Origin: a virus | Taxonomy: Duplodnaviria; Heunggongvirae; Uroviricota; Caudoviricetes | Direction: 5' to 3' (one strand) | Virus record (IMG/VR): IMGVR_UViG_2531839130_000013 | DNA: 45,266 nt | Shown here: positions 15,510 to 16,907 of the stretch, in pieces | Layout of the letters: every line of letters starts with the position of its first letter | Numbering within the stretch: the first letter of the stretch is position 1 | Position numbers and translations under genes: made by a program | The notes under the pieces: model-generated | What the model saw: only the letters and a program-made list of their open reading frames with translations | The model's database searches: none | What the model was told of the DNA's origin: nothing

Positions 15510-15707
15510 ATGCTAAAACAGCAGGATATGACCGAAACTGCCAGAGTGGTGTTTAATGAATTAAGCGTCACCGAACCGGCGACCGTCGGGGAGATTGCGC
15601 AGAATACTTACCTTTCACGCGAACGCTGCCAGTTAATACTGACCCAGCTTGTTATGGCGGGTCTGGCAGATTATCAGTTCGGTTGTTACAGACGCCTTCC
15701 GCGGTGA
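15510..15707 (+). CDS. Small hypothetical protein (65 aa), possible winged-helix regulator
   Basis: Start MLKQQDMTETAR with SD upstream; located just upstream of the methyltransferase gene. Confidence 0.4.
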   Translation: MLKQQDMTETARVVFNELSVTEPATVGEIAQNTYLSRERCQLILTQLVMAGLADYQFGCYRRLPR

Positions 15708-15857
15708 AGGTTTTTTAATTTGTGGTAATGGGCGGCTGGTGGGTGTTAGCGGCACCTGCCAGCCATCTGCTCATGCGTTGTGGTCACAAGCAAACCTCAG
15801 GCCCATCTGCTTTGCGCAAAAGCGGTATGAGCCTATCAGAGAAGTGCTTATTGATCT

Positions 15858-16907
15858 ATGGCTAATACTGTAAAAATATCCAGTTGTGAGTTAATCAACG
15901 CTGATTGTCTGGAATTTATCCAGACCTTACCGGAAAATTCTGTCGATCTGATAGTCACAGACCCGCCATACTTTAAAGTGAAGCCCGAGGGCTGGGATAA
16001 CCAGTGGAAGGGCGACGATGATTACCTGAAATGGCTGAATCAGTGTCTGGCGCAGTTCTGGCGGGTACTGAAGCCCGCAGGAAGTCTTTACCTGTTCTGT
16101 GGTCATCGCCTGGCATCTGACACCGAAATCATGATGCGTCAGCGCTTTAATGTGCTGAACCACATTATCTGGGCGAAGCCGTCAGGGCGCTGGAACGGGT
16201 GCAACAAGGAAAGCCTGCGGGCGTATTTCCCGGCAACAGAGCGCATTCTGTTTGCAGAACATTATCAGGGGCCATACCAGCCCAAAAATGACGGCTATGA
16301 GGCAAAGGGGCGTGAGCTAAAACAGCACGTCATGGCCCCGCTGATTTCTTACTTTCGTGATGCGCGTGAATCACTGGGAATAACGTCAAAACAGATAGCG
16401 GAAGCCACCGGAAAGAAAAACATGGCTTCGCACTGGTTTGGTACCAGTCAGTGGCAATTACCGAACGAGGGTGATTACAACAAATTGCAGGCGTTGTTTG
16501 CGCGTGTTGCGGCAGAAAAGCATCAGCGAGGGGAACTGGAAAAGCCACACCACCAGCTGGTCAGCACATACAGTGAACTGAACCGGCAATATGCCAGCCT
16601 GCTGGAAGAGTATAAATCTTTGCGGCGTTATTTTTCCGTATCGGCTGCCGTTCCGTATACGGATGTCTGGACGCATAAATCCGTGCAGTTTTATCCGGGC
16701 AAACATCCCTGTGAAAAACCGGCAGATATGTTGCGGCAGATAATTGAGGCCAGCAGTCACCCTGGTGATTTGGTTGCGGATTTTTTTATGGGTTCAGGTT
16801 CAACGGTAAAAGCGGCGATGGCACTGGGGCGTTGTGCGATTGGTGTTGAGCTGGAGACCGGACGTTTTGAACAGACAGTCAGGGAAGTTCAGGATTTAAT
16901 CGTTTGA
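15858..16907 (+). CDS. Orphan DNA methyltransferase (N6-adenine/N4-cytosine type, motif IV DPPY before motif I)
   Basis: DPPY motif near the N-terminus (LIVTDPPYF) and FxGxG AdoMet motif near the C-terminus (DFFMGSGST); no adjacent restriction endonuclease gene. Confidence 0.8.
   Translation: MANTVKISSCELINADCLEFIQTLPENSVDLIVTDPPYFKVKPEGWDNQWKGDDDYLKWLNQCLAQFWRVLKPAGSLYLFCGHRLASDTEIMMRQRFNVLNHIIWAKPSGRWNGCNKESLRAYFPATERILFAEHYQGPYQPKNDGYEAKGRELKQHVMAPLISYFRDARESLGITSKQIAEATGKKNMASHWFGTSQWQLPNEGDYNKLQALFARVAAEKHQRGELEKPHHQLVSTYSELNRQYASLLEEYKSLRRYFSVSAAVPYTDVWTHKSVQFYPGKHPCEKPADMLRQIIEASSHPGDLVADFFMGSGSTVKAAMALGRCAIGVELETGRFEQTVREVQDLIV

Follow-up and report, generated by a model that had tools for sequence, protein, structure and literature searches.

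The window, by which we mean the whole 45,266-nucleotide stretch of Caudoviricetes DNA that was analysed, carries an intact member of the M.EcoGII family of DNA methyltransferases at 15858-16907. To explain its presence at this site, we propose that it is a non-specific orphan N6-adenine methylase of the phage late operon, whose Q-dependent late expression would lead to heavy adenine methylation and thus guard the phage DNA against restriction; we give this reading a probability of roughly 0.8. Its family membership, its intact catalytic motifs, its location downstream of a homologue of the late promoter PR' and the presence of two terminator-like hairpins were all established here. The finding is real but already explained and the family has been characterised: M.EcoGII is a known non-specific N6-adenine methyltransferase from E. 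coli prophages (PMC5778455). The features of the locus are, in order:

14330-14704, plus strand: late antiterminator Q gene, 124 aa (Pfam Phage_antitermQ, E = 6.4e-51; 74% amino-acid identity to the Q region of Sakai prophage Sp5).
14749-15228, minus strand: lipoprotein-like accessory gene (moron) between Q and the late promoter (phrog_8179, of unknown function, E = 1e-99).
15305-15332, plus strand: PR'-like late promoter, with -35 TTTACA at 15305-15310, -10 TATGCT at 15327-15332 and a predicted start near 15339 (promoter scan; 75% nucleotide identity to the Sp5 PR' region).
15367-15387, plus strand: terminator-like hairpin 1 with a T-run, about 30-50 nt past the predicted start (terminator scan; 52-nt fold of -18.2 kcal/mol).
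15448-15485, plus strand: conserved non-coding block CTTGCTGG...AGAGTTATnnGTATGTCAC, 25-60 nt upstream of the small ORF (alignment).
15510-15707, plus strand: gene for a 65-aa predicted winged-helix protein, phrog_331 (E = 1.3e-37; AF2 pLDDT 91.6).
15694-15717, plus strand: terminator-like hairpin 2 with a T-run, overlapping the small-ORF stop codon (terminator scan; weak here, -6.9 kcal/mol).
15721-15857, plus strand: conserved 137-nt leader abutting the methylase ATG (alignment of species-level loci).
15858-16907, plus strand: M.EcoGII-family beta-class N6-adenine DNA methyltransferase gene, 349 aa (ORF list, profile searches, alignments, AF2 model).
16957-17032, plus strand: tRNA with anticodon CAT, annotated ileZ in related phages (ARAGORN; Rfam, 72.5 bits; phiP27 and Sp5 annotation).
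17130-17206, plus strand: tRNA-Arg (TCT), argO in related phages (ARAGORN, Rfam).
17220-17239: strong hairpin after tRNA-Arg (-14.6 kcal/mol, z = -3.6).

In the 349-aa protein, motif IV (DPPY, residues 35-38) lies N-terminal of motif I (FxGxG, here FMGSG, residues 310-314), which is the order of the beta class. The Pfam profile PF01555 (N6_N4_Mtase) matches residues 29-340 (E = 4.9e-44) and PADLOC MTase_II matches over the full length (E = 4e-156). The ORF, its motif order and the beta-class amino-methyltransferase reading of the original prediction are thus borne out, and both motifs proved intact when they were checked for mutation on closer alignment. In fact, the only departures from columns conserved at >=90% are D61N, I89T and P275S, none of them within the catalytic motifs. 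Selection has evidently acted on the protein, since 40 species-level loci show identities of 84%, 92% and 52% at codon positions 1, 2 and 3 of the methylase gene, a pattern that points to purifying selection.

Over its whole length, the protein is identical to M.EcoGII at 306 of 350 positions (about 87-88%), an approximate value and probably a lower bound because the reference sequence was obtained by machine reading of the PDF supplement of PMC11551740 and contains obvious errors. Identity reaches 94% in the catalytic N-terminal part, 83% in the TRD and 86% in the catalytic C-terminal part; the TRD (residues 160-237) differs at 13 of its 78 positions and the whole protein at 12%. In the AF2 model, whose mean pLDDT is only 70.8, a helical insert at residues 147-255 splits the Rossmann core, with predicted helices at 147-173, 177-184, 190-194, 204-223 and 231-255 lying between the core halves; this agrees in outline with the published M.EcoGII model, in which a charged helical linker joins the core to a four-helix-bundle TRD containing an HTH (PMC11551740). 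A sequence search of the PDB returned no solved structure of the M.EcoGII family, only distant beta-class cores (8urk and 9c3u, E ~3e-24; M.RsrI, 1.7e-22; CcrM, 2e-15), and these matches span the two halves of the catalytic core without the central TRD and the charged linker. The protein also scores below the cutoffs of two equivalog models, YhdJ / M.EcoKII (NF008572, 108.9 bits against 292) and CcrM (NF050803, 71 bits against 830).

The closest characterised enzymes speak to the target. M.EcoGII, the reconstructed ancestor Anc291 (86% identical to the protein of the window) and SUPREM (70%) have all been shown by experiment to be adenine methylases that lack sequence specificity (PMC5778455, PMC11551740). 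Given this shared behaviour and the roughly 88% identity to M.EcoGII, the expected target of the window's allele is any adenine. The original prediction held that the target could not be inferred and that the enzyme might modify N6-adenine or N4-cytosine: the first statement is not supported in the light of these three relatives, and of the second the beta-class part stands, with adenine favoured by homology and N4-cytosine activity unlikely.

The methylase is flanked upstream by DUF968, RusA, the antiterminator Q, the minus-strand lipoprotein-like gene and the winged-helix ORF, and downstream by the two tRNAs, a TerB-like gene, holins and a GH108 lysozyme. No restriction endonuclease was found among the neighbours within about 3 kb on each side, nor in the early region, where ten large ORFs were covered, and the locus thus lacks the adjacent cognate endonuclease that defines a Type II restriction-modification system. 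In these respects the earlier reading was accurate: an orphan gene in the late region, here placed after Q/PR' and ahead of the tRNA and lysis genes, with a 65-aa ORF upstream, tRNA genes as neighbours and no endonuclease-like gene adjacent. Loci of Escherichia, Klebsiella, Buttiauxella and Erwinia, with three different Q families among them, repeat the order Q, small ORF, methylase, tRNAs or accessory genes, holin and lysin. The lipoprotein-like gene occurs in only two of 83 related loci (L003 and L004), and a hairpin lies 3' of its stop codon.

The initial transcribed sequence GTTAAGAGTGGTTAC behind the late promoter is common to the window, Sp5, phiP27 and 1720a-02. The Sp5 start was placed on the Sp5 record with a coordinate offset between genome versions that we take to be 142 nt. 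Sp5, phiP27, 1720a-02 and other genera keep hairpin 1, though with altered stems; the stem of hairpin 2 varies in sequence between genera while its complementarity, judged by eye, is retained. In Sp5 (the Sakai Stx2 phage), the start at the late promoter PR' and the StxS transcript of 258 nt have been mapped experimentally (PMC7547250), and from the length of StxS the Sp5 homologue of hairpin 1 evidently does not halt all transcripts. A promoter right behind Q was considered and rejected: an alignment of six loci with related Q alleles contained no conserved block downstream of Q, and the promoter adjoins the conserved module instead. The block at 15448-15485 aligns in nearly all loci that bear the small ORF, amid varying flanks; it fails the criteria of a sigma-70 promoter scan, and a separate promoter within it is possible.

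The position of the methylase behind the PR' homologue and two terminator-like hairpins makes Q-dependent late expression likely. We envision that transcription from the late promoter would, in the lysogen, halt at the hairpins and the toxic methylase would therefore not be made. Upon induction, RNA polymerase modified by Q would read through the hairpins, and the methylase, among the first genes of the late operon, would be made alongside the lysis and morphogenesis proteins. The replicating phage DNA would then become heavily adenine-methylated ahead of packaging, which could blunt many adenine-sensitive restriction systems of the next host at once. Both the Q-dependent read-through and the protection of virion DNA are our inferences, and our literature search found no paper reporting hypermethylated virion DNA of such phages or in vivo virion hypermethylation by these enzymes. 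The non-specific activity, the silence in the lysogen and the toxicity come from the literature on close homologues: M.EcoGI and M.EcoGII give no methylation signal in the native lysogen, are toxic when expressed, and are proposed to be turned on as the prophage excises and to overcome restriction by the host when the phage infects (PMC5778455, PMC12707154). Of the two roles originally suggested, the likely one is to shield progeny DNA from restriction, judging from the late position and the work on homologues. The other, a change in the epigenetic state of the lysogen, is unlikely and goes unsupported: it is opposed by that silence and toxicity, and also by the placement of the gene behind the PR' homologue and its hairpins.

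Other functions can be imagined for such an enzyme. It could be a site-specific orphan with a defined motif, which would either regulate the lysogen epigenetically or guard against one restriction enzyme. The original prediction leaned implicitly towards such a model, as is suggested also by the name 'site-specific DNA-methyltransferase' that NCBI and other sources give to homologues of the enzyme, by the TRD differences from M.EcoGII and by the site specificity of the beta-class relatives M.PflMI, M.RsrI and CcrM. We consider this very unlikely, because the name is a generic automatic label, probably wrong across the whole clade, and because the protein sits inside a clade bracketed by the non-specific M.EcoGII, Anc291 and SUPREM, whereas the nearest site-specific relative of M.EcoGII, M.PflMI (CCANNNNNTGG), is only about 27% identical to it. 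Moreover, ~93% similar homologues in O111 STEC yielded no motif in lysogen methylomes (PMC6602927). Alternatively, the main role could be host takeover or RNA modification, with late global m6A on host DNA or RNA disturbing replication, transcription or mismatch repair. In vitro, M.EcoGII does accept ssDNA, RNA and RNA/DNA hybrids as methylation substrates, and its expression slows growth (PMC5778455, PMC11551740); the methylase of the window also keeps company with phage tRNA genes and late-expressed toxin or accessory genes. Yet the activity of M.EcoGII on RNA is far weaker than on DNA, residue 179 is Q as in M.EcoGII rather than the E that improves RNA methylation in SUPREM, and late expression would leave little time to reprogram the host, so that a takeover function is unlikely.

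That the gene is a decaying remnant, a passive passenger in a defective prophage without current function, is scarcely credible. In favour of decay, the M.EcoGII prophage has been called cryptic (PMC5778455), Sp5 and 933W-type phages retain only about 100 nt of the methylase gene, and the 61-kb Stx2a phage group is without it (PMC8456039). In the window, however, the ORF is full-length with its motifs intact, the codon-position identities indicate purifying selection, and the prophage also has its integrase, replication, Q and lysis genes. The late, non-specific, protective methylase remains our preferred reading.

How the toxic enzyme might be further restrained is suggested by the sequence that precedes it. 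Of 47 species-level loci, 45 carry the leader, which abuts the ATG every time, and its mean pairwise identity across genera is 85.7%, against 52% at the synonymous sites (codon position 3) of the adjacent methylase. Its minimum free energy is -62.8 kcal/mol (z = -3.34). Only one base pair covaries convincingly, between alignment columns 94 and 118 (CG 22, UA 8, AU 7, UG 3); its candidate stem, columns 92-97 and 115-120, falls at about 15765-15770 and 15789-15794. The RNAalifold covariation term is just -0.44 kcal/mol because the leader sequences are too similar. Ahead of the ATG there is no Shine-Dalgarno sequence, and no conserved upstream ORF or leader peptide is coupled to the methylase start; a 47-codon ORF of the window was rejected as a leader peptide because it is missing from most loci. 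Two candidate structures were also set aside on reading the alignment: its variation gives no support to a hairpin ATCAG...CTGAT beside the ATG, and the pairing of the AUG region in the MFE fold has no support from covariation. A Chi sequence (GCTGGTGG) sits within the leader; it was rejected as the cause of the conservation, since several genera lack Chi there and keep the rest of the leader. Neither the leader nor the PR'-proximal RNA nor the block ahead of the small ORF matched an Rfam family: within 14000-18000 (Rfam 15, E <= 0.1) the hits were confined to the two tRNAs plus an antisense hit of 36 bits that overlaps the first of them, and within 15300-15900 (E <= 10) to a single chance match to mir-316, outside the leader. 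The element appears not to have been described so far and, together with the missing Shine-Dalgarno sequence, suggests an additional layer of control over the enzyme.

The small ORF is a real gene of the conserved phage family phrog_331, with 334 homologue clusters whose top hits are all in Enterobacteriaceae. Its product starts at an inner ATG (15510) of a 106-aa ORF (15387-15707), and the confident AF2 model (a three-helix winged-helix domain with a beta hairpin) supports the putative winged-helix fold of the original prediction. The 'regulator-like' part of that description holds for the fold but not for a regulatory role, as 16 of the 47 methylase-bearing loci keep the methylase and the leader without the gene; with the small ORF in just 31 species-level loci, the methylase does not require it. 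The Pfam TrmB match is weak (E = 0.0025, below the family cutoff), PADLOC and NCBIfam gave no match, and Foldseek against the PDB returned generic MarR/IclR-like winged-helix matches (E about 1e-3) that are uninformative on function. Our literature search found no study of the gene.

A C-protein-like controller that times or limits transcription of the methylase would fit the DNA-binding fold, the conserved non-coding block upstream and the fixed position of the ORF, at -348 to -154 from the methylase start in all 79 close loci. Known C proteins, however, are Xre-type helix-turn-helix proteins with C-box operators. The small protein has a different fold and a repeat search found no repeated operator-like motif at the locus; considering also the loci without it, a controller of this kind seems doubtful, and the ORF may instead be an unrelated late gene or encode an RNA-binding protein. 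A somewhat different picture, which we put forward tentatively, is that the leader is a cis-acting RNA element dedicated to M.EcoGII-type genes, which would restrain translation or govern stability until late lytic growth, with the 65-aa protein as its trans-acting partner in two-thirds of the loci. Such a system would be a functional analogue of Mu Com/mom made from unrelated parts.

The methylase itself is one more allele of a very large characterised family and leaves existing knowledge unchanged. Its place behind PR' and two hairpins nevertheless offers a simple mechanistic reason for the reported silence in lysogens, and leader-based control could matter for how Stx-type phages pass restriction barriers as well as for the expression of M.EcoGII-type enzymes. 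M.EcoGII is a commercial reagent for chromatin and RNA footprinting.

Among known systems, the closest counterparts are M.EcoGII and M.EcoGI from the prophages of E. coli O104:H4 C227-11 (Murray et al. 2018, PMC5778455), which share with the window's enzyme the length of 349 aa, about 88% identity, the beta-class motif order, a lambdoid prophage and the lack of a restriction partner; the AF2 model predicts a similar helical TRD architecture as well. They differ in the residues counted above; the published work on them does not describe the winged-helix ORF, the PR'/terminator context or the conserved leader. The same paper names phage 1720a-02 as carrying 'a very similar MTase'. The two-gene order and the q-to-tRNA position are identical to those of the 'transcriptional regulator + site-specific DNA methylase' module of the 45-kb Stx2a phages, phiP27 and 1720a-02 (PMC8456039; AJ298298, KF030445), with nucleotide identities over the locus of 91% to phiP27 and 87% to 1720a-02 and the Stx2a phages. 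Unlike them, the window prophage has the TerB-like gene in place of stx, and the extra lipoprotein-like gene between Q and PR'.

More distant systems share parts of this design. M.PflMI, M.RsrI, CcrM and M.MboIIA have the same catalytic fold and motif order. The Dam-type orphans of phages (T4 Dam, P1 Dmt, M.EcoVT2Dam of Stx phages) are likewise phage-borne orphan adenine methyltransferases, but they are alpha-class enzymes specific for GATC and, in lambdoid phages, lie in the nin/early region, as does the PF05869 Dam gene of one related locus (L085). In com-mom of phage Mu, a small protein gene directly precedes mom, and RNA structure masks the start region. There the Com zinc-finger protein activates translation by binding the leader RNA and opening a start-codon hairpin, whereas the small protein here is a predicted winged helix with two conserved cysteines only; Mom, too, is not a SAM methyltransferase of the M.EcoGII-type fold. 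The likeness to com-mom is thus one of analogy, not membership, and lies in function: a toxic late adenine-modifying enzyme of relaxed specificity, silent in the lysogen, that shields phage DNA from many restriction enzymes (PMC12707154).

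The window is a lambdoid prophage, in which Q is followed by a lipoprotein-like gene, a 65-aa ORF, the methyltransferase, two tRNAs, a TerB-like gene and the holin/lysozyme genes.

Main features of the prophage
1-1119, minus strand: lambda-type integrase
Replication genes: protein with a DnaT DNA-binding domain and lambda-P-like protein
DUF1627, DUF977 and QueH-like genes
12916-13965: DUF968
13978-14349: RusA
14330-14704: antiterminator Q (Pfam E = 6.4e-51)
14749-15228, minus strand: lipoprotein-like gene (phrog_8179, unknown function)
15510-15707: 65-aa ORF
15858-16907: methyltransferase ORF, 349 aa
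16957-17032: tRNA(CAT)
17130-17206: tRNA-Arg(TCT)
17382-17807: TerB-like gene (phrog_632 'tellurite resistance'; Pfam TerB 1.2e-07)
3' of the TerB-like gene: holins and GH108 lysozyme

The original prediction was right about the ORF (PF01555, E = 4.9e-44), about its motifs (DPPY at residues 35-38, FMGSG at 310-314) and about the neighbouring genes, and, as it stated, no endonuclease gene lies beside the methyltransferase. Its main error was to hold that the target cannot be inferred from the sequence alone: homology does predict the specificity, namely none. The window protein matches M.EcoGII at 306/350 positions in BLASTP, with identities of 94% in the catalytic N-terminal part, 84% in the linker, 83% in the TRD (residues 160-237) and 86% in the catalytic C-terminal part; the M.EcoGII reference (GenBank EGT69837.1) is machine-read text taken from the SUPREM supplement (PMC11551740), in which a few errors are obvious. 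M.EcoGII, a beta-class enzyme of 349 amino acids, is a member of what its authors call 'a very large family' among E. coli prophages; it modifies adenine whatever the surrounding sequence (in vitro as much as 99% of dA) and is unexpressed in its native lysogen and deleterious on expression (PMC5778455). Nanopore mapping on RNA gave no sequence motif for M.EcoGII, Anc291 or SUPREM, all ancestral proteins methylate both DNA and RNA, and M.PflMI, the nearest enzyme with proven site specificity, is just 27% identical to M.EcoGII (PMC11551740). Because the window protein shares 86% identity with Anc291, a reconstructed ancestor, and 70% with SUPREM, with M.PflMI so distant, it lies well inside this experimentally bracketed non-specific clade, and its sequence predicts an enzyme without sequence specificity.

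The protein appears intact. In a 39-sequence alignment it departs from columns conserved at ≥90% at three positions only (D61N, I89T and P275S), none of them in the catalytic motifs, and in its AlphaFold model (mean pLDDT 70.8) a helical insert at 147-255 splits the Rossmann core, matching the published architecture. A 100% identical protein occurs in IMG/VR (locus L004), and the 2955 homologue clusters at E ≤ 1e-10 have top matches almost all from Enterobacterales. By megablast, 15200-17300 matches 302 phage records, mostly Stx2-converting phages, headed by phiP27 at 91% nucleotide identity, with 1720a-02 and many Stx2a phages at about 87%. Homologues in O111 STEC, about 93% similar to M.EcoGI/GII, are listed as 'nonspecific', and the methylome of the 95JB1 lysogen shows GATC and CTGCAG with no further motif detected (PMC6602927). 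The methylase finding is thus real, yet already explained by a characterised family (PMC5778455, PMC11551740).

The original prediction did not mention the 137 nt between a hairpin at 15694-15717 and the methylase ATG (15721-15857). Across 40 species-level loci from different genera of Enterobacterales, mean pairwise identity of this leader is 85.7%, against 84%, 92% and 52% at codon positions 1, 2 and 3 of the first 130 methylase codons in the same loci and 52% in the hairpin region just 5' of it. Of 47 species-level loci, 45 have it, among them loci lacking the small ORF, and its profile matches 137 of the sequences searched, adjoining the methylase ATG every time, with one extra partial copy in locus L096; at methylase homologues ≤55% identical the profile search did not find it. 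It is unlikely to be coding, as it shows indels of a single nucleotide and no upstream ORF is conserved, and we infer that it is a functional non-coding element.

The leader of this window folds at -62.8 kcal/mol (z = -3.34), and none of 200 shuffles folds as well. In a hand-drawn five-helix candidate structure, 95.6% of cells pair, as compared with 25-50% when partners are slid, and one pair, alignment columns 94/118, clearly covaries: CG (22), UA (8), AU (7) and UG (3), with 0 mispairs. A long-range alternative from RNAalifold reaches an equal pairing score with almost no covariation; since the two structures use some of the same nucleotides, both are candidate folds only. No Rfam family matches it. 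The methylase ATG (cttattgatctATG) has no Shine-Dalgarno-like sequence within 15 nt, in contrast to the small ORF, which is preceded by AAGGGA. The leader may act instead at the DNA level; most likely, however, it is an mRNA leader governing translation or stability of a toxic enzyme.

The 65-aa ORF is a genuine gene: it falls in phrog_331 (E = 1.3e-37) and has 334 homologue clusters (typically 63-65 aa, top matches all in Enterobacteriaceae), and 22 positions are invariant among 25 aligned homologues. The original prediction called it regulator-like, which holds for the fold and says nothing of the role: AlphaFold gives a confident winged helix (pLDDT 91.6; helices at 9-16, 26-33 and 37-49, then a beta hairpin), and Foldseek against the PDB returns generic winged-helix domains only (E ~1e-3; MarR and IclR regulators, O-methyltransferase N-terminal domains). 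Nor is it a classical C protein. Relative to the methylase start, the ORF spans -348..-154 in each of the 79 close viral loci whose flank is long enough; it occurs in 31 of 47 species-level loci (37-97% identity), being missing or replaced by unrelated sequence in the other 16; in Stx2c phages homology begins exactly at 15721, i.e. without it. It is therefore accessory, with no requirement for it by the methylase. Some loci without it carry other genes in the slot 5' of the leader: L098 and L115 encode there (-443..-204) a 79-aa cysteine-rich, zinc-ribbon-like protein with three CxxC pairs, and further loci have unrelated 117-134-aa ORFs ending at about -165. Nearly all loci carrying the small ORF also have, 25-60 nt 5' of it, a conserved non-coding block (window 15448-15485, CTTGCTGG ... 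AGAGTTATnnGTATGTCAC) that might serve as promoter, operator or 5' UTR element; the stretch between this block and the upstream hairpin (15367-15387) is variable or deleted.

How might such an enzyme be expressed? In Sp5, the Sakai Stx2 prophage, experiments have mapped both the start site of the late promoter PR' and StxS, a terminated transcript of 258 nt (PMC7547250). Window 15295-15390 is 75% identical to the Sp5 PR' region, with TTTACA for TTTACG at the -35 element and a common -10 region, and the initial transcribed sequence GTTAAGAGTGGTTAC is shared by the window, Sp5, phiP27 and 1720a-02. The published start was placed on the RefSeq record with a 142-nt offset between genome versions, which we assume. 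Because the window Q likewise resembles the Sp5 Q region, at 74% identity, Q and PR' look like a cognate pair, split here by the inserted lipoprotein-like gene. Loci of Klebsiella, Buttiauxella and Erwinia, whose Q genes belong to three families unrelated to one another (PF06530, PF06323, PF03589), retain the order Q, small ORF, methylase, lysis genes.

Between the predicted start (~15339) and the methylase ATG lie the two terminator-like hairpins with T-runs, 15367-15387 and 15694-15717; both recur in other genera with stems altered yet complementary, as judged by eye. We propose that in the lysogen PR' transcripts would stop 5' of the methylase, and that after induction Q-modified polymerase would read through, which is consistent with reports that M.EcoGI/GII are silent and toxic. 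Both this read-through and a protection of virion DNA are inferred. The first hairpin may be leaky, since the mapped Sp5 transcript continues to 258 nt. This conserved T-run hairpin stands about 30-50 nt past the PR' homologue, and 15305-15390 could yield a short RNA like StxS/EcOnc15, or perhaps like the Pas sRNAs. RusA, TerB and DUF1627 are marker genes of the PasA and PasC surroundings (bioRxiv 10.64898/2026.05.13.724894); as all three are present, a Pas-type sRNA may lie near the TerB-like gene.

Of 83 related loci, only 2 have the lipoprotein-like gene in the Q-PR' slot; phiP27 has a GIY-YIG nuclease gene there and others have different cargo, making the slot a hot spot for accessory genes. 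The TerB-like gene, 3' of the tRNAs, takes the position of stxAB in phiP27 and Stx phages. Between Q and ileZ, Sp5 lacks the methylase, and just 5' of ileZ an M.EcoGII-type remnant of the last ~100 nt persists (positions 2112-2270 of locus L084, E. coli Sakai, NC_002695.2, against window 16806-16961; 82% aa identity over residues 316-348), so that this lineage has lost the small ORF, the leader and the bulk of the methylase by deletion or replacement. ARAGORN calls the tRNA at 16957-17032 tRNA-Met (CAT), while its phiP27 and Sp5 homologues are annotated ileZ, a tRNA-Ile whose CAT anticodon would require modification to lysidine. The nin-like region carries a homologue of the tRNA-modification enzyme QueH (epoxyqueuosine reductase; 11396-12082, Pfam E = 1.6e-65), which coexists with phage tRNA genes. 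Chi (GCTGGTGG) occurs 12 times in the window, as against 2.15 expected from shuffles, with 8 copies on the plus strand, one within the leader (15735-15742) and one 5' of the small ORF (15419-15426).

With its predicted toxicity, late expression, silence in lysogens and broad anti-restriction effect, the methylase recalls Mu mom, a comparison that a recent review has made before (PMC12707154). More speculatively, we envision that the parallel might extend to a Com-like role of the small winged-helix protein on the leader.
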